64,000 nt of DNA from an uncultured Pseudomonadota bacterium (GCA_902788485.1 CADAKI010000001.1:183007-247006), one strand, 5' to 3'; shown: positions 25,070 through 45,151, numbered from the stretch's first letter. The notes: generated from the letters alone by a model not told the origin. A program made the numbers and translations.

Positions 25070-25288
25070 TTATTTATGTGTTTTGACGGCGGTCAATGCC
25101 AAACCACGATGCAGCAACGCACACAATAAATCCGGCGGAATCGGCAATCGCCCAATTTCATACAAGTACAAATCGTGCGACGATATTTTCAAAATTTCCG
25201 CCACGGTTGCTTTATTCATATGCAATGATTTGCGTGCCCGACGCAACTGTTGCCCATATGCACGCGCATCAATTAAAACAATAGACAT
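25070..25288 (-). CDS. XRE-family helix-turn-helix protein, 72 aa (copy 1, intact)
   Basis: GQQLRRARKSLHMNKATVAEILKIS...YEIGRLPIP is an HTH_XRE pattern; GGAGG Shine-Dalgarno upstream; paralog at 44933. Confidence 0.85.
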   Translation of the reverse strand: MSIVLIDARAYGQQLRRARKSLHMNKATVAEILKISSHDLYLYEIGRLPIPPDLLCALLHRGLALTAVKTHK

Positions 25289-25315
25289 ATTCTCTCCTCC
25301 ATTTTTTTTGCAACA

Positions 25316-25470
25316 AAAATACCGCGAGAAAAGCGCGGTTGGAGGCAAGAAAACTACAAAGATATAAAGTAGTGTCGCTTATTCAATATATTCGCAACCC
25401 TCCAACCACATGGTGGCGGAGTTATATCTTTAAGGGTTTTCTTGACCCACACTGGCAACACACCAATGCA
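25316..25470 (-). ncRNA. C4/CI-like antisense RNA leader (copy 1)
   Basis: Conserved with 44671-44826. Core stem GTGGTTGGAGG/CCTCCAACCGC (25409-25335) encloses two hairpins and a bulge. The loop and bulge are complementary to upstream sites. It ends in an ACCGCG/CGCGGT terminator-like hairpin. Confidence 0.7.
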
Positions 25471-25475
25471 CAGCG

Positions 25476-25504
25476 ATTTTATTAAAAAAACATCCAGAAT
25501 TCAA
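25476..25504 (-). promoter_or_regulatory. sigma70 promoter of RNA/HTH module copy 1
   Basis: TTGAAT-17-TAAAAT, 5 nt before the conserved TGCATTGG; same spacing as copy 2. Confidence 0.7.
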
Positions 25505-25511
25505 TAAAAAT

Positions 25512-25636
25512 TTGCAAATGGGGATTTTTGCATTTATAATAATCCCATCGCGGAGGGTAATTATTCATTTTTGCACTTTTTACCAATTCCACAAAAGCAT
25601 ACCGCCAGAGTGTAAAAACGAATGATTTTTCTCCGC
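25512..25636 (+). promoter_or_regulatory. pnp promoter and long 5'-UTR hairpin
   Basis: TTGCAA-17-TATAAT, then GCGGAG..ATTATTCATTTTTGCACTTT pairing with AGAGTGTAAAAACGAATGATT..CTCCGC. Confidence 0.6.
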
Positions 25637-25670
25637 AAAATCTAAAAAAAACTAAAAAATGGAGAAAAAT

Positions 25671-27866
25671 ATGTTATTTGGTTTATTTGATAAAAATGAC
25701 AAAGAAAATGTGGCGGCACATCCGTTAAATCACCCGGTGGCTGTTGAAATTAAATATGGTGATGAAACATTGCGCCTGGAAACGGGTCGTATGGCGAAAC
25801 AGGCCAACGGTGCGGTTTTGGCAACAATGGGTGGAACAATGGTTTTGGCAACTGTATGCGCGGAAAAAACCGCGGTCGAAGGCCAAGATTTCTTTCCACT
25901 GACCGTTGATTATCAAGAAAAATTCGCATCCAGTGGTCGTATCCCGGGTTCGCGTGACCGTCGCGAGGGCAAACCATCAACCGCCGAAACATTGACGGCG
26001 CGTTTGATTGACCGCCCAATTCGTCCACTGTTCCCGGATACATTTAAAAACAAGGTGCAAATTATTGCCCAGGTTTTTTCATATGACCGTAAAAACCAAC
26101 CTGATATTTTGGCGATGATTGCGTCATCTGCGGCATTGGCATTGTCGGGTGTTCCGTTTGCGGGCCCCATTGGTGCCGCGCGCGTTGGATATATCGACGG
26201 TAAATATGTTTTGAATCCATCGCGTCGTGATGTTGATATGCGTTCTGAAATGGATTTGGTTGTGGCCGCCACACATGATGGTGTGTTGATGGTTGAATCT
26301 GAAATCGGCGAATTGGACGAAGAAACAACATTGGGTGCGGTTAAATTTGGTTTTGATGCACAACAATCTGTTATTGATGCAATCAACGAATTGGCGGCCC
26401 AGGCGGGTAAAGAACGTTGGGAAACACCAACACACACCGATGAATACATCGCAATGGAAAAAGATTTCGCCAGTTTTGAAAAACAAATCAGTGACGCTTT
26501 GTTGATTAAAGAAAAACTGAAACGGTTGGAAACATTGGCGGAAATCCACAGTGCGGCGAAATCACGCATTCCGGAATTGTTCAATGACACAACAACCGCA
26601 ACATCAACATTGGAATCATGGGCGGACGAAATTATTGAATCTTTGACGGCGCGTATTATGCGTGGCAACATTTTGGCGGGCAAACCGCGTATCGATGGCC
26701 GCGACACAAAAACCGTGCGTCCGATTGAAATCGAATTGGGTGTATTGCCACGCGCACACGGGTCTGCGTTATTCACACGTGGCGAAACCCAGGCATTGGT
26801 GTCATTGACATTGGGTGGCGGCAAAGACGCATTACCGGTTGAATCGTTGGATGGTGCCGATGAACGCGATTTTATTTTGAATTATAATTTCCCGGGATAT
26901 TCCGTGGGCGAGGCCAAGGGTCTGAAATCCCCGGGTCGTCGCGAATTGGGACATGGTAATTTGGCATGGCGTGCATTGCATCCAATGATGCCATCTCGCG
27001 AAAAGTTCGATTATGTTGTGCGTGTATGTTCTGACATTTTGGAATCAAATGGTTCGTCATCTATGGCGACAACATGCGGTGCAACATTGGCAATGATGGA
27101 CGGCGGTGTGCCATTAACACGTCCGGTTGCCGGTATCGCCATGGGCTTAATCAAAGAAGGTGACGATTACGCCATTTTGACCGATATTTTGGGTGACGAA
27201 GACCACTTGGGCGATATGGATTTCAAGGTCACCGGAACCAAGGATGGTATTACCGCATTGCAAATGGATATCAAAATTACATCTATTACTTTTGATATTA
27301 TGAAACATGCATTGGCCCAGGCACGCGACGGTCGTATGCACATTTTGGGTAAAATCGAAAATGCGATTGCGGCACCGCGTGAAAAAGTGTCTGAATTCGC
27401 ACCCCAGGTTTACACAATGCAAATCAATCCTGAAAAAATCCGCGATGTTATCGGCAAAGGTGGTGTCGTTATCCAGGCATTGGTGCGTGATACAAACACA
27501 ACCATTGATTTGGACGATGATGGAACGGTCAAAATATTGGCCACAACATCCGAAGATGCCGACGCCGCAATGGCTCGCATCAAGGAAATTGTTGCCGAAC
27601 CAGAGGTTGGCAAGATTTATCGTGGTGTCGTCAGTGGTATTAAAAACTTTGGTATTTTTGTGAAATTCATGGGTAATTATGAATCCATGGTGCATATTTC
27701 CGACATTACCGGAAAACATCTGAAGAGTATCGAAGATGCCAAATTGAAAGAAGGCGATAGCGTCTGGGTCCGGTTTGATGGCGCGGACGAACGCGGCAAA
27801 ACTCACCTGAGTATGAAGGGCATTGACCAAGAAACAGGTGAAGAAATCAAAAAGCCGGCAAAATAA
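25671..27866 (+). CDS. pnp: Polyribonucleotide nucleotidyltransferase
   Basis: FFPLTVDY, RLIDRPIRPLF, ESNGSSSMA and DHLGDMDFKV motifs, plus KH and S1 domains. An alternative start is at 25659. Confidence 0.98.
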   Translation: MLFGLFDKNDKENVAAHPLNHPVAVEIKYGDETLRLETGRMAKQANGAVLATMGGTMVLATVCAEKTAVEGQDFFPLTVDYQEKFASSGRIPGSRDRREGKPSTAETLTARLIDRPIRPLFPDTFKNKVQIIAQVFSYDRKNQPDILAMIASSAALALSGVPFAGPIGAARVGYIDGKYVLNPSRRDVDMRSEMDLVVAATHDGVLMVESEIGELDEETTLGAVKFGFDAQQSVIDAINELAAQAGKERWETPTHTDEYIAMEKDFASFEKQISDALLIKEKLKRLETLAEIHSAAKSRIPELFNDTTTATSTLESWADEIIESLTARIMRGNILAGKPRIDGRDTKTVRPIEIELGVLPRAHGSALFTRGETQALVSLTLGGGKDALPVESLDGADERDFILNYNFPGYSVGEAKGLKSPGRRELGHGNLAWRALHPMMPSREKFDYVVRVCSDILESNGSSSMATTCGATLAMMDGGVPLTRPVAGIAMGLIKEGDDYAILTDILGDEDHLGDMDFKVTGTKDGITALQMDIKITSITFDIMKHALAQARDGRMHILGKIENAIAAPREKVSEFAPQVYTMQINPEKIRDVIGKGGVVIQALVRDTNTTIDLDDDGTVKILATTSEDADAAMARIKEIVAEPEVGKIYRGVVSGIKNFGIFVKFMGNYESMVHISDITGKHLKSIEDAKLKEGDSVWVRFDGADERGKTHLSMKGIDQETGEEIKKPAK

Positions 27867-27949
27867 AGAAAACCCAAGCCCACCCCGGTGGGCTTGTTTT
27901 TTGGAGTTTTATATGAAAAAACATATATAAAAAAACAAAGGACAAAATA

Positions 27950-28249
27950 ATGGATTTAGATGCAATGATGGCCCAGGCACGCGAACTGCAATCCCGCGTC
28001 GCCGCCGCCCAGGATAATTTGGGCAAAATAAATGTCAAAGGTATCGCCGGAAATGGTGCGGTTATTGTCGATATGACGGCGAAATATGATGTGGTGGATG
28101 TTATTATATCGGATGCGGCGATGAAAAATGGGGCTGAAAACCTGTCAAAAATCGTCCGTGACGCGTTTATTGATGCCAAGGCCAAGGCAGATGCCATAAT
28201 TGATAAAACGATGTCTGATGCGACAAATGGCGTCGATTTGCCGTTTTAA
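27950..28249 (+). CDS. ybaB: YbaB/EbfC nucleoid-associated protein
   Basis: MMAQARELQ, G.AGNGAV.V and DAF.DA..KA patterns. Confidence 0.85.
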   Translation: MDLDAMMAQARELQSRVAAAQDNLGKINVKGIAGNGAVIVDMTAKYDVVDVIISDAAMKNGAENLSKIVRDAFIDAKAKADAIIDKTMSDATNGVDLPF

Positions 28250-28307
28250 AAAAACACCGCCCATTTGGGCGGTTTTATAATCGCGACAAAGCGTCAGCGA
28301 AAATTTA

Positions 28308-28913
28308 TTACCATGTTGGTGCGTGTGTACCTTCTTTGACAATCGGCTGTTCGTCTTCCCATACAGATAAACCTGTTTTTAAATCGGTCAATGTCAGTTG
28401 CAGGTAATATTCTACGCGTGTATCAACCGATGAAAACCATCCGGATTCCAATTTCAAATTGCGTTGCAACATTTTTCCCGACAGCGACATGTTTGGCGCA
28501 ATCAATGTACCTTTTGATGCAAATGTTGCCGCATCGTATTCGTCGTTGCCACGCAAATTGCGCATTTTGTTTGATGTGGTGTCTTCGCCGGTAAAGTTTG
28601 TTGCAATTTGTGCACGCCCCGATTTCAAAATTGTTGTGCGGATTTTTTTGATTAAGATATCCGTGTCAAACCGTTGCATGGTGTCGTTTTTAATGTTTGC
28701 CACCGCAATCACAGGTTTTTTTACCCCGGTCAACGCATTACTTTTCAACATAGAATCGGTCATATTTGCCGCGGTTTTTTCCCAATCGCGATATTCTAAT
28801 TCCATAACATCTTGCATGGTTGCAACATCGCGGGCATCGTCCAAATCAACAACGCGTGTCCCACCGCACCCGGCCAATACCGCACACAGTGCAATCGGTA
28901 ATAATTTTTTCAT
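28308..28913 (-). CDS. LpoB/YcfM-like lipoprotein
   Basis: Lipobox LAGC; KPVIAV..IKNDT..FDT and YYLQLTLTDLKTGLSVWEDE..I.K patterns. Confidence 0.8.
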   Translation of the reverse strand: MKKLLPIALCAVLAGCGGTRVVDLDDARDVATMQDVMELEYRDWEKTAANMTDSMLKSNALTGVKKPVIAVANIKNDTMQRFDTDILIKKIRTTILKSGRAQIATNFTGEDTTSNKMRNLRGNDEYDAATFASKGTLIAPNMSLSGKMLQRNLKLESGWFSSVDTRVEYYLQLTLTDLKTGLSVWEDEQPIVKEGTHAPTW

Positions 28914-28934
28914 GTTTTCTCCTTTTTTTGTTTG

Positions 28935-30191
28935 TTAAATTTTGAATATATGTACGACCGGGTCGCCGCCAGTCAATCGCACATATATTAAATAATTCCC
29001 AGATTTCGGTAATTCTGTATTTAACATATCACCAAAACTACCGGTAATCAAGTCGCCTGTATTCATGCGTAAAACACTGATGGTTTCGGGTAATGTTGCC
29101 CATGAACGAACCTCGGCATCGGTTGTGGCGATTGAAAATATTGTTGATGTCAACCCGATTAAACCGGAATATTTGCTGTTTGAATTATACGCGGCGGCCT
29201 GGGCCACTGTGCGGGCAGACGCCGCCCCCCACGCGCGCAATGCATCATTTATATTGTATTCGTTAAATTCGGTCATAAACATTGCATTCACATCCGCCAA
29301 CGGTTTTGCACCATTGATTGAAATATTACTGCGCCCAAATTCCGGTACCGCAATCGCGATTGATGACCAAATAATCCCGCCACCCGTTATCACCGGCAAA
29401 GAAATTGTTTGTTCACGCAACCGTGGTGCAAACCCGGATTCAATAAATATCCATGTTGTGTTTTTGGGACGCGTGTTTGATTGTGCCAAATTTAAATCTG
29501 TGGCGATATATGAATTATTATTTGTCATGCCAACGGCGCGTTTCAAATAAGTTTCGGCGTCATTAAAATCACCCGCGTTCAAAAACCAAATGCCCGACAA
29601 ATACATCAACGCCGGATTCATAATATCGCTATATGCGCCCCATGTTGATTTCGCCCGGTCCAATTCAGACATCAATTCAGAATTATTTTCATCCGCACTG
29701 TGCGACGAATTCTTTTGCACTAAATCGGCATATTCGCGTGACATTTTTTGTTGCCGCGCATAAGATTGATTGATAATCACCCGCACATCATCGCGCCGGT
29801 TTTCACCGATTGCATCCCAAATTTGATAATACGACACAAACAAAGAATCCATCATATATGGCCGATATTCTGATGCCATACGACCGGCAACGATATTTGT
29901 TGCCTCACGCATAAAACTGCCTGATGTGGTGTCGATATTTCGTTTGTTAAATTCTTCAAATGTTTTATCACTGGACGCATAATTACCATCCAAAAATTGC
30001 GCATATCCTGTTATCAATAATTCCAAACTATTTTGTTCGGTGATATCATGCGACGATGAAAATTGTATTGCTGATTCTGTGAAATTATTATTTGCCACGG
30101 CCGACCGCACATTATCCAACCGTGTGGTCATAACACCCGCACATCCAGACAGCGTAAACACAAACAAAAAAACAAATGCAAATTTTTTCAT
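28935..30191 (-). CDS. COG3014-like lipoprotein
   Basis: Lipobox LSGC; YLSGI, IESGFAP and ADxRSWxTLP-like (AEVRSWATLP) motifs; this family is usually adjacent to lpoB-like genes. Confidence 0.7.
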   Translation of the reverse strand: MKKFAFVFLFVFTLSGCAGVMTTRLDNVRSAVANNNFTESAIQFSSSHDITEQNSLELLITGYAQFLDGNYASSDKTFEEFNKRNIDTTSGSFMREATNIVAGRMASEYRPYMMDSLFVSYYQIWDAIGENRRDDVRVIINQSYARQQKMSREYADLVQKNSSHSADENNSELMSELDRAKSTWGAYSDIMNPALMYLSGIWFLNAGDFNDAETYLKRAVGMTNNNSYIATDLNLAQSNTRPKNTTWIFIESGFAPRLREQTISLPVITGGGIIWSSIAIAVPEFGRSNISINGAKPLADVNAMFMTEFNEYNINDALRAWGAASARTVAQAAAYNSNSKYSGLIGLTSTIFSIATTDAEVRSWATLPETISVLRMNTGDLITGSFGDMLNTELPKSGNYLIYVRLTGGDPVVHIFKI

Positions 30192-30197
30192 TAAAAT

Positions 30198-32471
30198 TTA
30201 TTCAGATAAAACTTTGATAGTTTTGGTTGTTGGGTCCAAAAACCGAATTTGCCCGGTATATCCCATCGCACGACAATGGCTTGGGACCAAAAATTCCGGC
30301 ATCGGCGCAGATTCGCCCATTTCAACCTTGGCCAATAATTTCTTTTCAATATCAGATTTGCCTAAAAAGTATCTTTCTTGGGTTGCTTCAATAGGTCTGT
30401 GATACCAACCTTGGTATATAACGATTTGTTTGCCTTCGCCCAATGTCATAATATCCATTTCCGAATACAACGGTTTTGGTGCCTTGGTTTCTTCGGTTTC
30501 TTCGCCGGTATCTTTATTTTTCTTTTTTTCTTTTTTGATTTCATTACCAATCATTTCGGAAAAACGTTTGGCGGTTTCTGGGTCATTTTGACGCATAACA
30601 ATTTTCGCCGCCGTTGTTGAAATAATTGTGGCGGCGGCATCCGCACCGTATTTTTCCTGAATTTGGTGTAAATCTTGACCGATAATTAAATAAGAAATCT
30701 TTTGTCCGCGTCCCAAATCAGGTCCTTGGATAACGGCGTCCAATTTTTGCATTTTTGGCATTTCATCCAATACAAACAATACCGGATATGGCCCCAGTTT
30801 TTTACCATTTGATGTGATACCATCAGGGGTGTTCACCAATAAATAATTCGACATCAATTCGATAAATATTCCGGTGATTGGATTTAATGCCTGGGCATCA
30901 ACCATATTGATTGATAAATAAACCGTGACCGGTTTGATTTTTCCGTCCCTTGGATCACGCAGTCCGCGCAAATCTTCGAAATGGAAATCAGAATGTGATG
31001 TCCGGTTTCGCACCGCTGCATTACGGAAAACACCCAATCCCGCCATAATTGTGGACAATATTGACCCGCGTTCTTTGTCCGGTGTGTTTGCCAGTTGTGT
31101 TAATTCTAAAACCGCACGGTGTGAATATGCGAATTCTACGGCCTCGTTCACGGCGGCCTCTAACACATCCTTCATTGGGTCGGCCAATGCAACCATTTGG
31201 TCGCCTTGTTTGCGGCGTTCTTCCATTTCGGCGGCGTTTGCCAGTTGTGCCGCATTTAACCAATCCAAAATCATGGATAACGATGCCTCGTGCCCGACCC
31301 ATGCATCAGGAATATTTTTCCATGTTCCAACATGAACATAATTCATGGAATTTAATTCACCGCGTTGCAATAACCCCATCGCCGCATATGCGTTTGGATT
31401 ACTGGACATATTCAGGTAATATTCCAACAACACATTGGAATCTTCCTGGTTAAATTCACCCGATTGCAGACGCGAATAAAAATAATCATCGGCCTTGGCG
31501 CGTTCAACCTTGGAAATAATATATTGAATAAATCCGGACAATCCCGCGCGCCCAGAAATCGACCAATGCGGGTCCGCCGATGTGCCTGTGGCATCCGGGA
31601 CCAAAACCTTGCAAATCGTATCAACATACAAATCGCGTTGTTCGGTTTCGAACGGCACATGTTCCGGTGACAATGGGTTCCATGACGGGTAAAATATACC
31701 GCGTTCCGGGTCATCTTGACCCGCCCAATTCATAATAAACACCGGCCCAATCGTCGCACGATATGCAGATGTTTTTTGCTTTAATTCAGGTTTTGGGTCA
31801 TTGATAATCATTGAAACATTATCGCAATCAACGATTGTTGGAATAACAACGCCGGCGGTTTTACCGGCCCCCGGGGGCGCAACACACAATACAGACAATG
31901 TTTCATCCAACATCAATGGTTTTGTTTTTTTGCCATCCTTGAAATAGCCCAACACCATCATAAATCCGTTGAACAAACCATCTTTATTTTTGAAATTTTG
32001 TTTCATTTTGCGAATATCGTCGGCGTTTGCCTTGCGCGAAGATTTTGAATCATAAATATCAGACCCATACGGATTAAATTCCTTGGTCAATGTATCATCG
32101 GACACAAAATAAAATGCAATAAATGGCAACAGTGGTATAATCGCCGCAAAATCAGGTCGAATAATTGCCCGCGCAAACCAAGACGGCACGCCCGCAATAA
32201 CCGACATACCCCCGGTATGCAATGCATCACGCAAAAACAATCCCGACCAATGTGCGGTTGCCGGCGACCAACCATATCGAAACATGTGTTCCAACACAAA
32301 TGCCAACGCGAATGCTATGGCACAAATAATCCACATCGCCGCATTCCAACGGAAAATCCAAAACATTTGCGCCATCGGACCGGCTTCGTGTTCTTTATAC
32401 GCCGTCGATTTGAAAATGTTCAGTCCCTTGGACGACCCGCCCGCAGATAAAATATTGAATTTCTCAGCCAT
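30198..32471 (-). CDS. VirD4/TraG type IV secretion coupling protein
   Basis: N-terminal TMs, Walker A APPGAGKT..VVIP, NDPKPEL, WNPL, Walker B FVLDEMP, QDLHQIQEKYG and ETAKRFSEMIG. Confidence 0.9.
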   Translation of the reverse strand: MAEKFNILSAGGSSKGLNIFKSTAYKEHEAGPMAQMFWIFRWNAAMWIICAIAFALAFVLEHMFRYGWSPATAHWSGLFLRDALHTGGMSVIAGVPSWFARAIIRPDFAAIIPLLPFIAFYFVSDDTLTKEFNPYGSDIYDSKSSRKANADDIRKMKQNFKNKDGLFNGFMMVLGYFKDGKKTKPLMLDETLSVLCVAPPGAGKTAGVVIPTIVDCDNVSMIINDPKPELKQKTSAYRATIGPVFIMNWAGQDDPERGIFYPSWNPLSPEHVPFETEQRDLYVDTICKVLVPDATGTSADPHWSISGRAGLSGFIQYIISKVERAKADDYFYSRLQSGEFNQEDSNVLLEYYLNMSSNPNAYAAMGLLQRGELNSMNYVHVGTWKNIPDAWVGHEASLSMILDWLNAAQLANAAEMEERRKQGDQMVALADPMKDVLEAAVNEAVEFAYSHRAVLELTQLANTPDKERGSILSTIMAGLGVFRNAAVRNRTSHSDFHFEDLRGLRDPRDGKIKPVTVYLSINMVDAQALNPITGIFIELMSNYLLVNTPDGITSNGKKLGPYPVLFVLDEMPKMQKLDAVIQGPDLGRGQKISYLIIGQDLHQIQEKYGADAAATIISTTAAKIVMRQNDPETAKRFSEMIGNEIKKEKKKNKDTGEETEETKAPKPLYSEMDIMTLGEGKQIVIYQGWYHRPIEATQERYFLGKSDIEKKLLAKVEMGESAPMPEFLVPSHCRAMGYTGQIRFLDPTTKTIKVLSE

Positions 32472-32527
32472 GGTGTTATTATTATACCAGAAAAAACCAA
32501 CAAAATAAATCAGAAATAAAAAAATCT

Positions 32528-33184
32528 ATGAAAAACATACCGCGAATTTTTATTGGTAAAAACATTGTGTCAGGCGACAAAATTGCGATTGATAAATCTG
32601 TGTCGCATTATTTGGTACACGTTATGCGGCGCGATGATTGTTTGGTGTTTGGCGATGGGCATGAATACAAGGCAAATTTATCAAATGATGGGAATTTTTT
32701 GGTGGTTGGTAATCAAACATCACACGCCGACCCGTCAAATGATATAACATTATATTTTGCACCAATAAAAAAATTGGATGATATGTTAAACATGGCAACC
32801 CAAATGGGTGTTATGCGGTTTGTTCCGGTTATTACCGAACGCACCGTCGCGCATCACACAAATTGGGACCGTATGCAAAAAATAGTGATTGAGGCATCTG
32901 AACAATCCAATCGTAATTCTGTGCCGGAAATTGCAAAACCAATCAAATTTTCCGAATTACCATTTTCTGATTTGGTTTTTGCCGATGAACGTGCGGCGTA
33001 TGGCGCGGATTTGCCACATGATTTTATGGGGGCGAAAAATATTCTTGTTGGACCCGAGGGCGGATTTTCCGATGATGAATTTAGCATGTTGGATAAAAAT
33101 GGTGCGCACGGCATATCGTTGGGTAAAACGATTTTGCGTGCCGAATTGGCGGCGCCGGTGGCAATATCACGGGTGATAAAATGA
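32528..33184 (+). CDS. rsmE: 16S rRNA m3U1498 methyltransferase
   Basis: EASEQSNR, VGPEGGFS and SLGKTILRAE motifs. Confidence 0.93.
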   Translation: MKNIPRIFIGKNIVSGDKIAIDKSVSHYLVHVMRRDDCLVFGDGHEYKANLSNDGNFLVVGNQTSHADPSNDITLYFAPIKKLDDMLNMATQMGVMRFVPVITERTVAHHTNWDRMQKIVIEASEQSNRNSVPEIAKPIKFSELPFSDLVFADERAAYGADLPHDFMGAKNILVGPEGGFSDDEFSMLDKNGAHGISLGKTILRAELAAPVAISRVIK

Positions 33185-33879
33185 AACAACGAATCGCAAA
33201 ATTTATCGCATCATCCGGCATTGCATCCCGACGGGACGCCGAAAAAATAATCGCGTCTGGCGCGGTGTCTGTAAATGGTGTTGTTATCACAACGCCGGCA
33301 ACAATCGTCGATAATGATGTGGATACGGTAATGGTGAACGGTAAAAAAATAGAACCACAATCAAATACAGAATTATATATTTTCAACAAACCATTAAATG
33401 TTATGACGACTGCGCGTGACCCAAATGCCCGCACAACCATTTATGATATTTTACCACCTGAATACAAACATTTGCGATATGTTGGGCGATTGGATTATAA
33501 AACAACGGGATTATTGTTGCTGACCAATGATGGCGATTTGGTGCAAAAATTATCATTGCCATCAAATAAAATTCCGCGAACATATATTGCGCGTGTTGGT
33601 GGAACAAAACACCAATTTGAAATTGCGCGCCGTGGTGCGACGGTTGACGGGATAAAGTATCGTCCAATGGAAATAGATGAAATCGGAAAAAATAAATTAC
33701 GCATTACCGTGACCGAGGGTAAAAAGAATGAAATCCGTATTGTTCTGCGTGCATGTGGTGCGCCGGTTCAAAAATTGCATCGTGAATCTTTTGGAAATTT
33801 GCATATTGGAAATTTAGAATCTGGAAAAATTGAAAAAGTACATCAGAAAGATGTTGACCTGTTGTTGAAAACTCTTTAA
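33181..33879 (+). CDS. S4-domain rRNA pseudouridine synthase (RluB/RsuA family)
   Basis: SRRDAE, VGRLDYKTTGLLLLTNDG and EGKKNEIR motifs. Confidence 0.92.
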   Translation: MKQRIAKFIASSGIASRRDAEKIIASGAVSVNGVVITTPATIVDNDVDTVMVNGKKIEPQSNTELYIFNKPLNVMTTARDPNARTTIYDILPPEYKHLRYVGRLDYKTTGLLLLTNDGDLVQKLSLPSNKIPRTYIARVGGTKHQFEIARRGATVDGIKYRPMEIDEIGKNKLRITVTEGKKNEIRIVLRACGAPVQKLHRESFGNLHIGNLESGKIEKVHQKDVDLLLKTL

Positions 33880-34923: not shown

Positions 34924-35033
34924 AATGTGGCGCAATAAATCGCGTCCCCAACACACAATAAAAACGCACCAACAAAAGTTGGTGTGTTTTTTATGCAAAA
35001 AAACACCACCCAAAAACGGGTGGTGAAAAATTA

Positions 35034-35306
35034 TTATTTACGCAAACCTAATTTTTTAATCAGTTCTTCGTAATCTTTTTCATTGCGGCGTTTGATATAT
35101 GCCAACAATTTTTTACGACGATTAACCATCAATAACAAACCGCGTTTGCTGTGTTCGTCTTTGTGATTATTTTTCATATGTTCTGTTAAATTGCGAATAC
35201 GTTCGGTCAAAACCGCAACCTGGGATGCGGCACTGCCACCGTTATCGGCATCAGACACCTTGAACGCAGAAATTAATTCTGTTTTTTTTGCTTTTGTAAT
35301 GGACAT
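35034..35306 (-). CDS. rpsO: 30S ribosomal protein S15
   Basis: QVAVLTERI..LTEH...HKDEHSKRGLL.MV.RRKKLL.Y pattern. Confidence 0.98.
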   Translation of the reverse strand: MSITKAKKTELISAFKVSDADNGGSAASQVAVLTERIRNLTEHMKNNHKDEHSKRGLLLMVNRRKKLLAYIKRRNEKDYEELIKKLGLRK

Positions 35307-36190: not shown

Positions 36191-38724
36191 TATTTTTCAC
36201 CAAACAGCGATAATTGGGGTGGGTTATCATGTATTTGCATGTTTGTTTTACTGGTGCGTGTGGTCTTTTTTACATCAGCCGATGTCACGATTGGCGTTTT
36301 TGTCCCGTTTTCCAGTTCTGATAATACAACCTCGGCCCGCGCAACCACAGATTCCGGCATGCCCGCCATTTTTGCAACATGAATACCATATGACCGATTT
36401 GCAACACCGGGGATAATTTTATGCATAAATATAATTTCGTTATTGTATTCGCGCACATCAATGGTTAAACAAGATACATTTTGCAACGCGCCACCATTAT
36501 CGCCAGTTAACGCGGTCAATTCGTGATAATGCGTCGCAAATAAAGTCCGTGGTGCCAATTCGTTCAAATATTCTAATACAGATTGTGCAATCGCCATCCC
36601 ATCGTATGTTGCGGTGCCGCGCCCAATTTCATCAAAAATAATAAACGAACGATTTGTTGCACGACGCAAAATGTTGGCGGTCTCACTCATTTCCACCATA
36701 AATGTTGATTGTCCCGCCGCCAAGTTATCCGACGCACCAACGCGACTGAATAATTGGTCACAAATGCCAATCGTTGCACTTTCCGCCGGAACAAAAGAAC
36801 CCAAATGCGCCAACACAACAATTATTGCATTTTGGCGCAGGTATGTTGATTTACCCGCCATATTTGGCCCGGTCAATAACGCAATTTTTTTATTTGATAA
36901 ATCACAATCATTTTTAACAAAGTTATCACCCCGTAAACGTAAAACATATTCAATCACCGGATGCCGTGCGCCAACAACATTAAATTCAACGCCACACGTC
37001 AATTTTGGACACACCCAATCATATTCAACGGCAACCAATGCCAACGCCGTCCAAACATCCAAATCTGCCAACAAATCCGCGGTTGTTAATAAATCATCCG
37101 CGATTTCACGCACAGAATCGATAAAACCATTGACGATTTCTTCTTCGATTGCGTTAGATTTTTCCACCGCACTGCGAATATCATTGTCCAAATCAATCAG
37201 TTGTGCGGTTGTAAAACGCATATTCCCCGCCAATGTTTGACGATGTATAAACCCAGAATCAGGTTTCATCATATCGTCGGCGCGGGTGGATGGAACCTCG
37301 ATAAAATAACCCAAGATATTATTAAATTTGATTTTTAATGTATGAATTCCCGTCTGTTCAATATATTGTGCCTGGAGTCCCGCGATAGTATTTTTTGCGC
37401 CATGTGATAATTCACGCATGCGGTCCAATCCAACATCATACCCATCGCGAATCACATTAAAATCACGGAAAAACGTTGGTAATTCATCCGCCAATGCATT
37501 TTTTAATTTTGCACCCAACATATCGTGTGTATTAATCGCACCAATGCGTGCCGCAAAATCAGAATCAAACGCCACGGCCATTATTTTTAATCGTGGCAAA
37601 TTCAAAATAAAATCGCGTATGTGTGCCATGTCGCGCGGTGTTCCACGACCCGATATTAATCGCGCCAACGACCGTCCGGCATCCGGCATAGATGATAATT
37701 CGTGAACAACACTTAACATTGTTGCCCGATTAGATAAAAAATGTGCGATATGCGTCTGACGCAAATTTATTTCATCAATATCCCCCGACAAAGCCCGCAA
37801 ATACGCACGCAATTTTCGCGCCCCCGCCGCCGTTTTTGTTTTATCCAATACATCAATCAGGCATGCACCACCCGAATTTATTGGTGCATCAATTTCCAAA
37901 CTTTTCCATGTTGCCGAATCAATCAATAATTGCGCATCGTTTTTCAGTTGCCGCGGTGCACGAAAAGTTGTTGTTGCACCACGTCCGGTGTTAAATAAAT
38001 ACCCCGCCAACAAATATGTTGCATTATCCATGTTTTCAGATTGGACATCCGTGATTGCGCCACCAAACACGCGTGATACAATTTGCGTTATATCAGACCG
38101 AATATATAATTTTTCATATACCGGTGTTGTTTTGAAAATTGCGCGCATATGGAATATTGTGTCATTTTCTGCGGACGACGCCGGGTAAATAACCTCGGCC
38201 GGGTTTAATCGTACCAAATCATCAATTACGTCTGCGGTTTGCCCAATGAAAAATTCACCGGTTGAAATATCGCAACCTGCAACATCAAATTTATTATTTT
38301 GGGTTGGAACAACCGCCACCAAGAAATTAGAATTTTTCGGATTTAATAAATTTTCATCGGTCAATGTTCCCGGCGTCAAAACGCGCACAATTTTGCGTTC
38401 AATAAATTTATGCCCGCGTTGTTTTGCCTGGGCCGGGGTTTCCATTTGTTCAACCAATGCAACATTAAATCCCGATTTTACCAGTCGCCCAAAATAATTG
38501 TCCGCCGCATGCCACGGAATACCACACATTGGTATGTTTTCGCCATCCGCATCAGTGCCGCGTTTGGTTAAAACCAAACTCAATGCATTACTGATAGTTT
38601 TTGCATCGTCAAAAAATGCCTCGTAAAAATCGCCCAAACGAAACAACAGCAACGCGTCCGGATTTTCAGATTTCATATCCAGATATTGTTGCATTACCGG
38701 TGAAATTTTTTCTTTTGCTGCCAC
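36190..38724 (-). CDS. mutS: DNA mismatch repair protein MutS
   Basis: FRLGDFYE.F, TGPNMAGKSTYLRQ, STFMVEM and DEIGRGT motifs. Confidence 0.98.
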   Translation of the reverse strand: MAAKEKISPVMQQYLDMKSENPDALLLFRLGDFYEAFFDDAKTISNALSLVLTKRGTDADGENIPMCGIPWHAADNYFGRLVKSGFNVALVEQMETPAQAKQRGHKFIERKIVRVLTPGTLTDENLLNPKNSNFLVAVVPTQNNKFDVAGCDISTGEFFIGQTADVIDDLVRLNPAEVIYPASSAENDTIFHMRAIFKTTPVYEKLYIRSDITQIVSRVFGGAITDVQSENMDNATYLLAGYLFNTGRGATTTFRAPRQLKNDAQLLIDSATWKSLEIDAPINSGGACLIDVLDKTKTAAGARKLRAYLRALSGDIDEINLRQTHIAHFLSNRATMLSVVHELSSMPDAGRSLARLISGRGTPRDMAHIRDFILNLPRLKIMAVAFDSDFAARIGAINTHDMLGAKLKNALADELPTFFRDFNVIRDGYDVGLDRMRELSHGAKNTIAGLQAQYIEQTGIHTLKIKFNNILGYFIEVPSTRADDMMKPDSGFIHRQTLAGNMRFTTAQLIDLDNDIRSAVEKSNAIEEEIVNGFIDSVREIADDLLTTADLLADLDVWTALALVAVEYDWVCPKLTCGVEFNVVGARHPVIEYVLRLRGDNFVKNDCDLSNKKIALLTGPNMAGKSTYLRQNAIIVVLAHLGSFVPAESATIGICDQLFSRVGASDNLAAGQSTFMVEMSETANILRRATNRSFIIFDEIGRGTATYDGMAIAQSVLEYLNELAPRTLFATHYHELTALTGDNGGALQNVSCLTIDVREYNNEIIFMHKIIPGVANRSYGIHVAKMAGMPESVVARAEVVLSELENGTKTPIVTSADVKKTTRTSKTNMQIHDNPPQLSLFGEK

Positions 38725-38736
38725 GACATACCCTGT

Positions 38737-38940
38737 TTATGCAGAAACCTTTAATGTTTCGATTTTCAATTCGGCTTCTTTTAATAATTGTTCACAATAC
38801 GCCTTTAACTTAATTCCTTGTTCGTATGCGGCCACAGAATCCGCCAACGGCAATTCGCCAGATTCCATTTTTTTAACCAATTCGGTTAATTGTTTATATG
38901 CTTCTTCAAAGGTCAGTTTTTTATCGGTATTTTCTGCCAT
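38737..38940 (-). CDS. xseB: Exodeoxyribonuclease VII small subunit
   Basis: TFEEA..L..LV.KMESGEL.L.DS...YEQG..L...C...L.EAE pattern. Confidence 0.93.
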   Translation of the reverse strand: MAENTDKKLTFEEAYKQLTELVKKMESGELPLADSVAAYEQGIKLKAYCEQLLKEAELKIETLKVSA

Positions 38941-39143
38941 GTTTTTAATCCTTTTTATGTCAGATGAAAAATACACGATAAAAACCAAACTTTCAACAAA
39001 TTAAATAAAAATAATTATTCATAAACTGCACTTTGCTTGTGCCCCACGACCATATGGACGGCGGGGCAAACTTTGAACTAAAAAATCCCGCCAAAGCGGG
39101 ATTTTTATGAAAATAATCGCGGCTTTGCGCAAGCAAAGACGGA

Positions 39144-40899
<1,756 letters not shown>

Positions 40900-40970
40900 C
40901 TTTATCTGTGTTTATGATAAAATTCACCAATGAAAACACATAATTTTTAATTTTGTAAAAGGATTATAAA

Positions 40971-41414
40971 ATGTCATTTCGTGCAACCGTTGAATCTATG
41001 TCGCAAATCATGGATGAAATGGGAATAACTGAATTGGATTTGGAACGTCAATTTTTATTTGGCGTGTATCGCAAACATATTCACTTGTCCAAGGGATGTG
41101 CACCAACGGTGATGCCGTCTTTCCCGACGGATAACGGTATAAAAAATGCGACAACCGCCACCGCGGTCGCGCGTGATTATGCAAACGCATTAAAATCACC
41201 AATGGTTGGCGTGGTGTATTTGGCAACCGAACCGGGCGCAAAACCTTTTGTCAAGGTTGGTGACACCGTTCACGCCGGCGATACCGTCGCCTTGGTCGAG
41301 GCGATGAAAACATTTAACCCGATTAAGGCCACATCTGACGGCGTTGTCAAAGAAATTTTGGTGACCGATGCCCAGGCCGTAGAATTTGACCAACCATTGA
41401 TTATTATCGAGTAA
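40971..41414 (+). CDS. accB: Biotin carboxyl carrier protein
   Basis: SPMVG, EAMK biotinylation site and VEFDQPL. Confidence 0.93.
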   Translation: MSFRATVESMSQIMDEMGITELDLERQFLFGVYRKHIHLSKGCAPTVMPSFPTDNGIKNATTATAVARDYANALKSPMVGVVYLATEPGAKPFVKVGDTVHAGDTVALVEAMKTFNPIKATSDGVVKEILVTDAQAVEFDQPLIIIE

Positions 41415-41419
41415 AATAT

Positions 41420-42814
41420 ATGTCCCAAATAAAAAAAGTTTTAATTGCAAATCGTGGTGAAATCGCCCTGCGTATAATTCGTGCGTGTCGCGATATGGGT
41501 ATTCGCACGGTTGCGGTTTATTCAACCGCGGATAAAAATGCGATGCATACGCAACTGGCGGATGAATCTGTATGTATTGGACCGGCGCCGTCGCGTGATT
41601 CATACCTGAATGAATCGGCAATTTTAACGGCGGCATTATTAACGAACGCCGACGCGGTTCATCCCGGATATGGATTTTTGTCTGAAAACGCGGGTTTTGC
41701 GCGCAAGGTTGAATCACACGGTATGATTTGGATTGGACCATCCCCGGACATGATTGTTCGCATGGGGGACAAGGTTAACGCAAAAAAAACCGCAATCGCA
41801 TGTGGTTTGCCGGTTGTGCCGGGGTCGGATGGTGCGGTAAAAACATTGGATGACGCAAAGGTTTGTGCCGACAAAATCGGATACCCGGTTATGTTAAAGG
41901 CCGCATCTGGTGGCGGTGGTCGCGGTATTCGTGCGGTGATGACACCATCTGATTTGGCAGATGCATTTTCAACCACCCGGGCCGAGGCCAAGGCCAGTTT
42001 TGGTGACGACACATTGTATATGGAAAAATTATTGTTGCACCCGCGTCATATTGAATTTCAAATTTTGGGTGATAAACATGGTAATGTTGTTGTGTTGGGC
42101 GAACGCGATTGTTCACTGCAACGCAAAAACCAGAAAGTTATCGAAGAATGTCCTGCGGCGATTTTATCACAAAAACAACGCGACGATATGATTGAAATTT
42201 GTAAAACCGCCGCCAAAAAAATGGGGTATTTCAGTACCGGTACATTTGAATTTATGTATGAAGACGGCAAATTTTATTTCTTGGAAACAAATACCCGGTT
42301 GCAAGTTGAACACCCCGTGACTGAAATGGTTTATGGTATTGATTTGGTGCGCGAACAAATTCGTATCGCGGCGGGCGAACGGTTGGGCTATACCCAGGCA
42401 AATATCGTTCCGCACGGACACGCGATTGAATTTCGTATCAATGCCGAAGACCCGGATACATTTATCCCCAACCCCGGCACAATATCATTATATGCGCCGT
42501 CGGGCGGATTGGGCGTGCGTGTGGATTCGGCGGCCTATACCGGATACACAATTCCACCGACATACGATTCCATGATTGCGAAATTGATTGTGCATAACAC
42601 ATCACGTGCAACCTGCATAATGCGTGCAACGCGTGCACTGGATGAATTTGTGATAGAGGGGGTAAAAACCACAATCCCACTGCATAAAAAATTGTTAAAC
42701 AATCGTGATTTTCGCCAGTTGAATTTTGATAATCATTGGTTGGAACATTATTTGGCATCTGCCCCAAATCCGGATGATGAAATTGTCCCAGAACAAGACA
42801 AAACCGAAGAATAA
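41420..42814 (+). CDS. accC: Biotin carboxylase
   Basis: ANRGEIA, HPGYGFLSEN and NTRLQVEHPVTE motifs. Confidence 0.97.
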   Translation: MSQIKKVLIANRGEIALRIIRACRDMGIRTVAVYSTADKNAMHTQLADESVCIGPAPSRDSYLNESAILTAALLTNADAVHPGYGFLSENAGFARKVESHGMIWIGPSPDMIVRMGDKVNAKKTAIACGLPVVPGSDGAVKTLDDAKVCADKIGYPVMLKAASGGGGRGIRAVMTPSDLADAFSTTRAEAKASFGDDTLYMEKLLLHPRHIEFQILGDKHGNVVVLGERDCSLQRKNQKVIEECPAAILSQKQRDDMIEICKTAAKKMGYFSTGTFEFMYEDGKFYFLETNTRLQVEHPVTEMVYGIDLVREQIRIAAGERLGYTQANIVPHGHAIEFRINAEDPDTFIPNPGTISLYAPSGGLGVRVDSAAYTGYTIPPTYDSMIAKLIVHNTSRATCIMRATRALDEFVIEGVKTTIPLHKKLLNNRDFRQLNFDNHWLEHYLASAPNPDDEIVPEQDKTEE

Positions 42815-42920
42815 AAAAACCGCCAAATTGACGGTTTTTTTTGAGTGAATATTCTTGACATTAATAAATTTTGTGTTATATTTGCCGCTGCAAGTACATA
42901 CAAACTATAGGAGTTTTATT

Positions 42921-43433
42921 ATGCAGGGTTTTGGAATTCGCTCAACAACAAACAAAGAAGAGAAATATGTGGATGTATATGGTACTACTGAGTGTGATTT
43001 ATGTGCAAAAAAATGCTTTGATATTATAAAAGCAGGCCGAGAAAGAGACCAAATCAGAATAACAGGATTTTATAATTACCCAGACCGTGGTTACGGGGTT
43101 TTTGGCAATCGTAAAGAGTTGTCTGGTGATTATGAGGTTTATAATTGCGGAAGGTTGGTTTGTAAAGTGCGCATGACTGGTGCCACCCACCAAGGTGGTA
43201 ATTATGTAGAACGTATATGGGTTAATAAATGCGAATTTCATTTTTATGCAGAAACCAATGACAGTGCCAAATTAAAAGCAGTGCTACAAGGATATTTTAG
43301 AGAAAAAGATAGAAAAGAAACATTACGCGCTGGACAACAAGAACAAGAAATACAAAGAGCGCAAGAATCAAAACGTAATGCAGAAATTGCTTCTGCACAA
43401 AAGTTTTTAGATGAAATATATAAGGCAATGTAA
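42921..43433 (+). CDS. Hypothetical protein (AT-rich, own promoter)
   Basis: AGGAG RBS and TTGACA-17-TATATT promoter; no recognisable family. Confidence 0.7.
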   Translation: MQGFGIRSTTNKEEKYVDVYGTTECDLCAKKCFDIIKAGRERDQIRITGFYNYPDRGYGVFGNRKELSGDYEVYNCGRLVCKVRMTGATHQGGNYVERIWVNKCEFHFYAETNDSAKLKAVLQGYFREKDRKETLRAGQQEQEIQRAQESKRNAEIASAQKFLDEIYKAM

Positions 43434-43512
43434 GAAAAACCGTCAAATTGACGGTTTTTTCTTGATAAATTTAGATTGTGTGGTATAAAAATTATACATC
43501 AAGAGGTTTTTT

Positions 43513-43809
43513 ATGAATAATTCACACATTAAATGTATCATACAAAATATAAATGCAGGTGTAATGAATACTGCTTTAATGCGAGATCATAATTCATCGC
43601 CATTTCCTGCCTCGGATTTTTCAGGATTGTGTTATATCAGGGCAAAATCAAACCCGATGAAAGTTTTTTATTCTTTGAGAATAAATTATGGAAAGCCAGC
43701 AAGGCTTTTGATTCAAACTTCCAGTGTTGTGGTTGAAAGTGATAGGCAAGAGTTGAATGATTTATGGAATACTATTTCCGTAATAGAAAAAAATAAAAGA
43801 CAAAAATAA
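43513..43809 (+). CDS. Hypothetical protein (AT-rich, basic C-terminus KNKRQK)
   Basis: GAGG RBS and TTGATA-16-TATAAA promoter; flanked by terminators. Confidence 0.65.
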   Translation: MNNSHIKCIIQNINAGVMNTALMRDHNSSPFPASDFSGLCYIRAKSNPMKVFYSLRINYGKPARLLIQTSSVVVESDRQELNDLWNTISVIEKNKRQK

Positions 43810-43852
43810 AAACACCGGCATTTGCCGGTGTTTTTTATTTGTTGGTTTCTTA

Positions 43853-44512
43853 TTAAAAACCTTTTGGTGTTGACATTTTGACAGATGATACTTTTTTATT
43901 CAAAGATTTTACAACATCATCCGTAATATCCAGGTTTGCAATATTTGCACCCGTGCGGGCAAAACGACCATCAATCACCAAAGACAAATTTTTCTTGGCA
44001 ATTATACCCTCAATAATTGGGTCCAGGTGTTTATCCTGCAATTCTGCCAAAGATTTCTGATAAGATTCTTCGATGCTCTGTGCACGTTCAGACAAACTGC
44101 GTTGCAAATTCGCGACGCGTTTTTGATAATCGACAACACGACGTTGCAATGCGTCCGGTGACAAAACATCTTGGGATTTTTCAATTTCTGCTTTTTCTTT
44201 TTCCAATGCTTTTTGTTCAGATGTCAATTCATCACGTAATTTCTTTTCATAAGATTCGCGTTGGCTGCGTAAAGATTTTAATGCATCGGCATCTGTTTGC
44301 ACCGCGTCCATACGAATAACCGCGATACGCATATCGGCACCCGATGCAGCATCGGTTGAAACCTCTGCAATGGCTTTATCAACGGTTATCGGACTACGCA
44401 TGGCCGCCACCGCCCAAATACCCAACACCGCGACAACCAAAACCACGGCCGCAATAATTCCGGTTTTTTTATAGTTTTTAATTGTGATATTTTGTGTGTT
44501 TGATTTTACCAT
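43853..44512 (-). CDS. OmpH/Skp-family chaperone
   Basis: RIAVIRM, long coiled coil and the LDITDDVVKSLN C-terminus. Confidence 0.85.
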   Translation of the reverse strand: MVKSNTQNITIKNYKKTGIIAAVVLVVAVLGIWAVAAMRSPITVDKAIAEVSTDAASGADMRIAVIRMDAVQTDADALKSLRSQRESYEKKLRDELTSEQKALEKEKAEIEKSQDVLSPDALQRRVVDYQKRVANLQRSLSERAQSIEESYQKSLAELQDKHLDPIIEGIIAKKNLSLVIDGRFARTGANIANLDITDDVVKSLNKKVSSVKMSTPKGF

Positions 44513-44636
44513 TTTTTACCTTCCTTTTTTTGTTTGTTTTTTATATTCAGGTCGCACCAACTATAACAATAAAAATTCCAAAATAAAAGAGAATATTATT
44601 CATTAATTGTTTTTCCATATTCTGGAAAAAATAAAT

Positions 44637-44665
44637 TTGCAAACGCGTTCATTATCGGTTAAAAT
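44637..44665 (+). promoter_or_regulatory. sigma70 promoter of RNA/HTH module copy 2
   Basis: TTGCAA-17-TAAAAT, 5 nt before TGCATTGG. Confidence 0.7.
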
Positions 44666-44670
44666 ATGTC

Positions 44671-44826
44671 TGCATTGGTGTGTTGCCAGTGTGGGACAAG
44701 AAACCCTTATTACCAAGTTATCTCCACCACCATGTGGTTGGAGGGCTGTGAATATTTTAAATAAACAGCACTATTCTTGGTAGTAGTTTTCTTGCCTCCA
44801 ACCGCGTTTTTTTTCGCGGTATTTTT
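44671..44826 (+). ncRNA. C4/CI-like antisense RNA leader (copy 2)
   Basis: Paralog of 25316-25470 with compensatory changes; core stem 44734-44805; ACCGCG/CGCGGT terminator-like hairpin. Confidence 0.7.
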
Positions 44827-44828
44827 AT

Positions 44829-44888
44829 TCCCCTTCTTTATGAAAGAAGGGGTGGCACGAAACCGTCAGGTTGAGTGACGGGGTAGTT
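44829..44888 (+). repeat. REP-like palindromic element, family A
   Basis: TCCCCTTCTTTATGAAAGAAGGGGTGG...GACGGGGTAGTT; absent from the paralogous module. Confidence 0.8.
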
Positions 44889-44932
44889 GTGAATCCGCCA
44901 TCCTGGCGGTGATAAATAAAAATGGAGGAGAG

Positions 44933-45151
44933 ATGTCTATTGTTTTAATTGATGCGCGTGCGTATGGACAACAACTGCGCCGGGCGCGCAAATCATTACA
45001 TATGAATAAAGCAACCGTGGCAGAAATTTTGAAAATATCGTCGCACGATTTGTACTTGTATGAAATTGGGTGATTGCCGATTCCGCCGGATTTGCTGTGC
45101 GCGTTGTTGCATCGCGGGTTGGCGTTGACCGCCGTCAAAACACATAAATAA
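44933..45151 (+). pseudogene. XRE HTH copy 2 with an in-frame TGA at codon 47
   Basis: Protein is identical to 25070-25288 except for CGA to TGA at 45071-45073. Confidence 0.85.

Follow-up and report, generated by a model that had tools for sequence, protein, structure and literature searches.

A c4-like leader RNA family with copy-specific pairing codes in gut Alphaproteobacteria, a candidate terminator/antiterminator switch

The c4 RNA of phages P1 and P7 and the CI RNA of P4 are processed small RNAs (c4 by RNase P) that act in trans, the a2 and b2 sites of c4 overlapping a ribosome-binding site (RBS). Three-strand attenuators are familiar from the trp, his and pyr leaders and from riboswitch expression platforms, and sRNA-Xcc1 is said to be a trans-acting small RNA (sRNA) borne by integrons, transposons or plasmids. 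A paper on phage APSE, which cites Citron and Schuster (1990), and Weinberg (2010) present the c4 antisense RNA of P1/P7 with its a1/b1 and a2/b2 sites, and sRNA-Xcc1 is reported in multiple copies and tandem arrays in Xylella. At the gene level, the closest described arrangement is that of the Bartonella Brt1-9 RNAs and Trp proteins: Tu et al. 2016 (PMC5387305) depict multi-copy structured RNAs of 194-203 nucleotides (nt), each with its own terminator and directly before a small XRE gene (Trp, 108-152 amino acids [aa]). One Trp gene is a pseudogene, the number of Brt copies differs greatly from one species to another, a terminator role in cis, termed 'riboswitch-like', has been proposed, and Brt is reported there to be confined to Bartonella (PMC5387305). 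Here we describe a structured leader RNA found as two inverted copies, A and B, each before an XRE-type helix-turn-helix (HTH) gene, at positions 25070-45151 of a 64,000-nt stretch of DNA from an uncultured Pseudomonadota bacterium (GCA_902788485.1, CADAKI010000001.1:183007-247006). This whole stretch is hereafter referred to as the window, and positions are counted from its first letter.

We located the parts of the leader in both copies, found two alternative sets of pairings with covariation, established that its a and b pairing codes are specific to each copy, and traced the family through the host genus and order. Our preferred reading, to which we assign a probability of roughly 0.6, is that the leader acts in cis as a terminator/antiterminator attenuator of c4-like build. 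Each copy would be a transcription unit of its own, consisting of a sigma-70-type promoter, a leader of ~150 nt, an intrinsic terminator and a gene, where promoter and terminator are predicted from consensus matches only. The arrangement of two inverted copies with a shared layout, put forward in an initial annotation of the window, was borne out by direct reading and pairwise alignment, and every part named in it could be located. The order of parts is indeed shared, whereas 93 extra nt before the RBS of copy B had been missed. The parts are as follows.

Copy A, 25070-25504, minus strand: whole unit, read directly and aligned pairwise with copy B.
25476-25504, minus: promoter-like site TTGAAT-17-TAAAAT, a consensus match at a constant offset from P0 in all copies read.
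25449-25469, minus: P0 hairpin (GCAUUGG...CCAGUGU), from fold and alignment.
25434-25448, minus: b hairpin with a covarying local stem, its loop being the b site CAAGAAA.
25422-25431, minus: a site AAAGAUAUAA, complement of the H3 loop, from the cognate versus non-cognate duplex test.
25413-25421, minus: strand R1 CUCCGCCAC, candidate anti-antiterminator strand and partner of R2, from fold and covariation.
25399-25409, minus: strand R2 GUGGUUGGAGG, partner of R1 or R3, from covariation.
25374-25398, minus: H2 hairpin with conserved loop GAAUAUAUUGAAUAA, from covariation.
25353-25373, minus: H3 hairpin (ACUAC...GUAGU), its loop being a', from covariation.
25346-25352, minus: b' UUUCUUG, from duplex test and covariation.
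25335-25345, minus: strand R3 CCUCCAACCGC, candidate antiterminator strand, sharing 5 nt with the terminator 5' arm.
25315-25339, minus: predicted intrinsic terminator ACCGCG/CGCGGU with U tract (terminator-like match 25339-25321).
25294-25301, minus: RBS, TGGAGG.
25070-25288, minus: 72-aa XRE-type HTH gene, followed by its own terminator at 25050-25067.
Copy B, 44637-45151, plus strand: whole unit, parts in the same order as in copy A by pairwise alignment.
44637-44665, plus: promoter-like site TTGCAA-17-TAAAAT, a consensus match.
44672-44826, plus: leader RNA, 132.3 bits with our own covariance model.
44672-44692, 44693-44706 and 44710-44717, plus: P0, b hairpin and a site.
44722-44730, 44734-44744 and 44745-44769, plus: R1, R2 and H2.
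44770-44787, 44788-44794 and 44795-44805, plus: H3 with a', b' and R3.
44801-44826, plus: predicted terminator (terminator-like match 44801-44820).
44827-44919, plus: insertion of repetitive extragenic palindrome (REP)-like hairpin repeats between terminator and RBS, absent from A and from a third copy, C.
44923-45151, plus: RBS and HTH frame, with a TGA at 45071-45073 (codon 47).

The core, bounded by GTGGTTGGAGG/CCTCCAACCGC, measures 75 nt in A and 72 nt in B by hand count, in agreement with the 72-75 nt first proposed. Strand R1 reads CUCCRCCAC across both copies, and the H3 stem follows the pattern ACUAY...RUAGU. Both leaders folded more stably than their shuffled versions (z of -4.5 for A and -5.6 for B), with none of 200 shuffles equally stable in either case.

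Three strands of near-identical logic would make up the switch, namely R1 (CUCCAAC-like), R2 (GGUUGGAGG) and R3 (CCUCCAACC). In an extended state, R1:R2, a:a' and b:b' would pair and leave the 3' end of R3 free for the terminator, so that transcription would stop before the gene. In a core state, the b hairpin and H3 would form locally and R2 would pair with R3, which would take 3-5 nt of the terminator 5' arm and thereby let the polymerase read through into the gene. The thermodynamic default would be the extended, off state, the ~150-nt RNA being held by a:a' and b:b', and some factor (an RNA, a protein, a ligand or folding kinetics) would tip the balance to the core state. That termination is the regulated step, in this direction and under an external trigger, is what we infer from sequence and folding models. 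The best reading of the design may be that of a c4/sRNA-Xcc1-class RNA re-wired to a terminator instead of a second RBS target.

Both folds were examined in an alignment of 114 family members (A3) made with the covariance model, whose nested structure comprises P0, b:b', R1:R2, H2, H3 and the terminator, with covariation judged against 500 shuffles. Pairs of the extended state were formed in 96.3% of cells, 27 of the 31 pairs showed double-sided changes and no shuffle reached this value; upon sliding the partners by 1-3 columns, pairing fell to 37-53%. The core elements R2:R3, H2 and H3 were all paired in 98% of cells, again with covariation. Double-sided changes were distributed over the helices as listed here.

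P0: 4 of 4 pairs.
b:b': 6 of 6 pairs.
R1:R2: 4 of 6 pairs.
H2: 5 of 5 pairs.
H3: 4 of 4 pairs.
Terminator: 4 of 6 pairs.
R2:R3 closing stem: 5 of 9 pairs, 99% paired; this helix lies outside the model and was not, as a result, favored by the alignment.
Local stem of the b hairpin: 4 of 4 pairs, its covariation score being reached by 0 of 500 shuffles.

Since R2 is unable to pair with R1 and R3 together, and a' is unable to be the H3 loop and fully a-paired at once, the two states exclude each other, as had been proposed, and each has covariation support on the 114 sequences. In A and B, R3 and the terminator 5' arm share 5 nt, which casts R2:R3 as the antiterminator and R1:R2 as the anti-antiterminator. 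The three strands were also seen to change jointly: nine of 30 copies read in genome G119 carry CUCCUGA/UCAGGAG/CUCCUGA, one copy carries CUCCUGUC/GGCAGGAGG/CCUCCUGCC, locus L066 carries CCCGACC/GGUCGGG/CCCGACC, and several copies have U in place of G at the inner end of R2, with a corresponding C-to-A change in R3. Minimum free energy (MFE) predictions gave the extended/terminator fold, not the core fold, for A and B, and the same state for all seven copies folded, where forcing R2:R3 cost 3.5-20 kcal/mol. Over the 114 copies, sequence was strongly conserved in unpaired regions while the helices were variable. One further helix considered, between the 5' arm of the b hairpin and CCUC of R3, was rejected: it is 87% paired, yet 346 of 500 shuffles reach its covariation.

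Because the variable a region cannot be aligned by MAFFT, complementarity of the address pairs was tested directly. Among 26 distinct copies, a:a' duplexes averaged -7.05 kcal/mol for cognate and -2.43 kcal/mol for non-cognate partners, and b:b' duplexes -6.83 versus -2.97 kcal/mol, differences that none of 10000 permutations attained. The cognate partner was the best of all for a in 18 and for b in 21 of the 26 copies; the exceptions include G003a, in which a' is almost gone, and the pair G017a and G017b. A second, independent set, for which 82 of 95 copies could be parsed and 13 could not, yielded -8.07 versus -4.61 kcal/mol for a:a' and -7.41 versus -4.08 kcal/mol for b:b' (0 of 5000 permutations for each). 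The background is higher in this set because the whole upstream region was used, and the cognate partner ranked best in 23 of 82 (a) and 30 of 82 (b) copies. Within G119 alone, whose 19 parsed copies hold 19 different a' loops and 16 b' strings, no permutation out of 5000 matched the cognate pairing for either a:a' or b:b', the a result being weak (cognate best in 2 of 19, with some a' boundaries mis-set by the parser). Thus, the pairing of loop and bulge with upstream sites, as initially described, proved to be copy-specific.

The two codes differ in their rate of change. Between within-genome paralogs (22 pairs, a crude comparison in which the a columns are gappy), a/a' columns were 34% identical (227/662), as compared to 81% for b/b' and 84% (2152/2558) for the remainder of the RNA; a single b code is common to copies A, B and C. 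About 7% of coding positions differ between the HTH genes of A and B, and only one of these changes is not silent; measured against this, the a/a' code appears to have turned over faster than silent sites. This suggests either selection for different codes or their wholesale replacement, as judged from sequence. A second downstream target pair could not be found, in line with the initial annotation. When the 60 nt around the start codon of 76 copies were searched with a', cognate duplexes (-4.50 kcal/mol) were no better than non-cognate ones (-4.61 kcal/mol; 1475 of 2000 permutations as good), and the same 60 nt searched with b' gave -3.75 versus -3.55 kcal/mol (149 of 2000 permutations as good).

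The leader is neither confined to this locus nor restricted to HTH genes. We built a covariance model (labeled 'R1', distinct from strand R1) from 29 leader copies and used it, together with BLAST, on the host genome (G000; 843,556 bases, 90.8% complete). Four strong copies emerged, scoring 129.7 (A), 132.3 (B), 134.5 (C, on contig C3) and 90.5 bits (D), so that 'duplicated', the term first applied to the locus, falls short of a four-copy set belonging to a large family. Copy D is divergent. It lies at G000:C1:126846-127011 (L004:1424-1589), 56 kb before the window, precedes a 122-aa open reading frame (ORF) with a weak RBS and no Pfam family, and has a code GUCAAACGA/UCGUUUGAC and b code AUUUACA/UGUAAA, unlike those of A-C. 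The next match in the host genome reached 20.5 bits; matches at or below this score were mostly ordinary terminators, such as the one after rpsO at 34999-35110 of the window, and were rejected. The sole relative-like weak match was G000:C9:89-176 (L174), which scores 17.4 bits with model 'R1' and 21.8 bits with RF02221 and displays a closing stem GGCGGGGUG/CACCCUGCC, two hairpins and a terminator before a lipoprotein-like gene.

A covariance-model search of relatives, proposed from the outset as a check, returned matches in 134 of 151 genomes sampled from the order; these came from 105 of the 107 other genomes in the genus and from genomes in four of five other families, among others. As many as 49 matches at E<=1e-8 were present in the 1.0-Mb genome G119. 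A search for the core DNA pattern retrieved at least 120 stretches from a collection of species-representative genomes, and among the matches listed nearly all were gut metagenome-assembled genomes (MAGs) assigned to Candidatus Enterousia, Alphaproteobacteria or 'Rickettsiales'. The hosts are 'Candidatus Enterousia' gut Alphaproteobacteria with small genomes. We next list what follows the leader in 95 strong copies from other genomes.

XRE-type small protein: 34 of 95.
Protein with a signal-peptide-like N-terminus: 42 of 95.
Something else, e.g. an ATP-binding cassette (ABC) transporter: 12 of 95.
No ORF called by the rule used, several of these being tandem RNA arrays: 7 of 95.

An ORF was called within 260 nt after the leader in 88 of these 95 copies, and seven of ten downstream proteins scanned had no Pfam family. 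The coupling to an XRE gene that had been noted holds for A and B; across the survey, in contrast, secreted-protein genes outnumber XRE genes. Tandem leaders without an intervening gene were seen in L079 (four copies, 48-1114) and L111 (two copies, 2782-3095), each array copy having its own promoter-like sequence.

The leader family is absent from Rfam 15 and is, in this sense, uncatalogued. At gathering score, Rfam returned nothing but a tRNA in the whole window, and at E<=10 no family gave a credible match on the leader of A, B or 11 family members. Weak matches to Leu_leader, STnc370, the rnk leader, RNAI and others fell on the terminator after the HTH gene and were taken as noise, and Hrs13 (14.8 bits) and snoR41 (16.3 bits) on the leader itself were far below their cut-offs. 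No published description of the family was found in the literature searched, supplementary candidate-RNA lists lying outside that search.

The resemblance to c4 and CI claimed at first holds for the architecture and not for family membership, in that covariance-model scores place the leader in neither C4 nor sRNA-Xcc1. C4 (RF01695, gathering score 45 bits) gave no match at E<=10 on A, B, the 11 members or the whole genome. With c4 the leader shares a core of ~75-87 nt whose closing stem encloses two hairpins, a core loop and a single-stranded stretch (a' and b') complementary to two upstream sites in the same transcript, and codes that differ between relatives. It differs from c4 in having no a2/b2 target at the RBS, in adding strand R1 and an intrinsic terminator that overlaps the closing stem, and in that copies A and B lie outside any phage immunity region.

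None of the four host copies was matched by sRNA-Xcc1 (RF02221, gathering score 53 bits). The leader nonetheless resembles this RNA in its 9-pair G-rich/C-rich closing stem, in the AUACAAU...GAAUAA-like letters of the first hairpin and in a second hairpin followed by a short 3' joiner of 6-8 nt. It differs by lacking the inner stem of the first hairpin, which is probably why RF02221 misses the family. At another host locus, G000:C3:54521-54612 (L178:1501-1592), RF02221 scores 42.6 bits, below its cut-off. This locus is a promoter-leader-terminator unit before a secreted-protein gene: the loop of its b hairpin (GGACU-AUGCUA-AGUCC) complements UUAGCA after the second core hairpin, its a site GUAUCUU complements a loop AAGAUAC, and the 3' end of its closing stem GGCCGGGGAG/CUCCCCGACC is the terminator 5' arm.

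Plasmid pBGR3 of Bartonella grahamii (L181, NC_012847) carries an sRNA-Xcc1-like core of 49.5 bits at 25880-25967 (minus strand), within a leader at 25840-26100 (minus strand) that precedes a gene for a beta-solenoid protein. The 7-mer CCTAAAG occurs upstream of the core and again on the RBS of the next gene, with its complement in the second core loop; the 28-kb plasmid has four occurrences in total, of which three belong to this set and fall inside 205 nt, and UCAAAA sites pair likewise with the joiner UUUUGA. Judged by these complementarities, the pBGR3 leader shows the order a1/b1, core and a2/b2 that is classical for c4, as compared to which the Enterousia family has kept the upstream pair, dropped the downstream pair and added R1 and the terminator. 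Model 'R1' found nothing convincing on pBGR3, its best match (14.4 bits) lying inside a coding region.

With Brt/Trp, the family has in common a multi-copy structured RNA and terminator directly before a small XRE gene, the closest described arrangement at this level; the two differ in length, the leader having ~150 nt against 194-203 and the protein 72 aa against 108-152. Elsewhere on pBGR3, the leader of an HTH gene at 26440-26700 (plus strand), possibly the Brt of this plasmid, shows by eye and in one fold a three-strand motif CCCGGAA/UUCCGGGAG/CUCCCGGAA. This leader is divergently oriented with respect to the sRNA-Xcc1-like one, and its R3 can also pair with the RBS region. Finally, an intrinsic terminator, an overlapping antiterminator helix and an anti-antiterminator helix are all present as in three-strand attenuators, from which the leader differs by two extra, copy-specific, long-range pairings that tie its 5' end to the core.

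How well does a cis-acting attenuator account for these observations? In its favor, the leader is consistently found immediately ahead of a gene and the terminator/antiterminator overlap is conserved. Several points weigh against it. The large energy gap towards the off state means that the on state needs outside input, and we recognized no sensor in the leader, be it a conserved leader peptide, a tRNA-binding site, a known ligand site or a protein site; visual inspection of the sequence that follows R2 revealed no small ORF that is conserved, and a 10-codon UUG frame that copy A may have is lacking in B. The HTH-linked copies G017a and G017b are without a and b sites altogether. Furthermore, the display of b and a' in loops and the very fast turnover of a/a' between paralogs, neither of which a purely intramolecular switch requires, point towards RNA-RNA recognition in trans.

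These last features are what one would expect if the ~75-nt core (R2 to R3), cut from the terminated leader or surviving it, were a stable small RNA acting in trans, an alternative that we regard as clearly less probable than a cis attenuator and still the strongest of its rivals. The a' loop and b' bulge would then bind a and b of nascent leaders with the same code, and each copy would regulate itself alone. The c4/sRNA-Xcc1 shape fits such a role, as do the presentation of b and a' in hairpin loops with covarying stems, a trait of natural antisense RNAs, the 42.6-bit host locus with its matching a/b design and terminator overlap, and the target site of the 49.5-bit pBGR3 leader, which lies both upstream and over an RBS. 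Code turnover faster than that of silent sites would fit selection against cross-talk, and each of the 19 parsed G119 copies has an a' loop of its own. Against this, the intact leader is predicted to pair a' and b' with its own a and b, and the energetics favor such intramolecular pairing; no a2/b2 target was seen at the RBS of the 76 copies; and the shared b code leaves only a to tell A, B and C apart. A stricter form, in which the released core would recognize, via its private a'/b' code, nothing but the nascent leaders of its own copy, is a tentative idea to which we give less credence again. If true, such a self-addressed lock would amount to dozens of orthogonal RNA switches (49 in one 1-Mb genome) setting surface proteins and XRE regulators singly, and to a chromosomal, multiplied descendant of phage c4-type immunity put to use in surface variation or dosage control.

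We consider it improbable that the leader is riboswitch-like or bound by a protein, with the H2 loop GAAUAUAUUGAAUAA, ACUAY/RUAGU and the R strands forming a pocket or site and with a:a' and b:b' as merely structural P1-type helices, free to drift. The strong conservation of unpaired regions next to variable helices would agree with a binding site, and a single shared trigger would explain the same leader on dozens of unrelated genes per genome. Rfam, however, held no matching riboswitch or leader family, and drift alone would leave unexplained both the pace of a/a', which outstrips synonymous sites, and the covarying partner hairpins. It is very unlikely that the RNA is a free-standing sRNA gene targeting other mRNAs in trans, as proposed for Bartonella Brt1, and that its position before XRE genes is meaningless: its own promoter and terminator and the gene-free arrays of L079 and L111 would suit this idea, whereas the fact that 88 of 95 copies have the same orientation and stand a short way ahead of a gene, the conserved terminator/antiterminator overlap and the finding that the only specific a'/b' partners lie in the same leader all speak against it.

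Should the cis-attenuator reading hold, a design known from phage immunity (c4, CI) and mobile-element sRNAs would have been taken over as a general, terminator-wired leader that precedes perhaps 5% of the genes in uncultured, reduced-genome gut Alphaproteobacteria. The family would connect c4, sRNA-Xcc1 and possibly Bartonella Brt/Trp, so far treated separately, and would mark the surface-protein and regulator genes that these bacteria choose to control. It would also supply, ready-made in nature, numerous nearly identical switches set apart solely by their short address helices, useful for studying the evolution of RNA-RNA specificity and as orthogonal parts.

The 72-aa protein matched Pfam HTH_31 below cut-off only and resembles XRE proteins in the PDB; by sequence it has a generic XRE/Cro-like fold, its best PDB match (E 2.4e-6) being a protein named only DBP48. 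Relatives were found in 12 of 36 other genomes of the genus and in none of 24 genomes from other families of the order, and the leader stood upstream of 28 of the 30 HTH loci fetched in the genus. A 72-aa XRE gene had been annotated in each copy. Its frame is present in both; in copy B, codon 47 is an in-frame TGA where copies A and C have CGA. Apart from this nonsense change, the genes of A and B are distinguished by 15 synonymous changes and are otherwise identical (~7% of coding positions), and since only silent changes accompany the nonsense one, the HTH protein has been under purifying selection. The orthologous copy in the sister genome G020 is intact with CGA at that codon, and the stop in B is one of three things: a recent loss, an assembly error or a truncation. 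The use of TGA as a sense codon was rejected in view of long ORFs that close normally under table 11 and of the CGA in G020.

The surroundings of both copies are housekeeping in character with no phage genes next to copies A and B or between them, as stated at the outset and confirmed by the neighboring genes. Copy A is flanked by pnp (divergent), an unassigned 198-aa ORF and der, and copy B by skp/ompH (divergent), an ompA-family gene, a pilin-like gene and dnaX. Between them are found an LpoB-like gene, a gene for a VirD4/TraG-type coupling protein, rsmE-like and rluA-like genes, a tetratricopeptide repeat (TPR) protein gene, truB, mutS, mreB and accC. The coupling protein, a 757-aa component of type IV secretion encoded at 30198-32471 of the window (minus strand), sits amid these housekeeping genes.

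In a viral collection, three of nine core-pattern matches were true copies, two of them identical; the other six were chance matches inside unrelated coding regions. One of the viral-contig copies lies a few kb from P2-like tail genes, yet is upstream of a secreted-protein gene. The IMG/VR contig L041 encodes, at 1250-8792 and 12020-12195, P2-like tail sheath, tube, tape-measure and gpD proteins, a phospholipase D (PLD) nuclease and an EcoRI-like methylase, all within a few kb of a true leader copy.

Some smaller features accompany the copies. A pnp promoter-like site, TTGCAA-17-TATAAT (25511-25540, plus strand), stands back to back with the promoter of copy A, 8 nt apart, and its -35 region is part of a palindrome, ATTTGCAAAT, which copies B, C and D carry at their -35 as well. 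The insertion at 44827-44919 in copy B is 93 nt long and G+C-rich, with longer versions at the equivalent place in the sister genome G020 (L010, L035). Directly after the stop codon of copy B, ACTTTGA-like heptamer repeats extend over 45175-45210, and CAAAGTT runs of a similar kind are found beside copies in G018 and G020.

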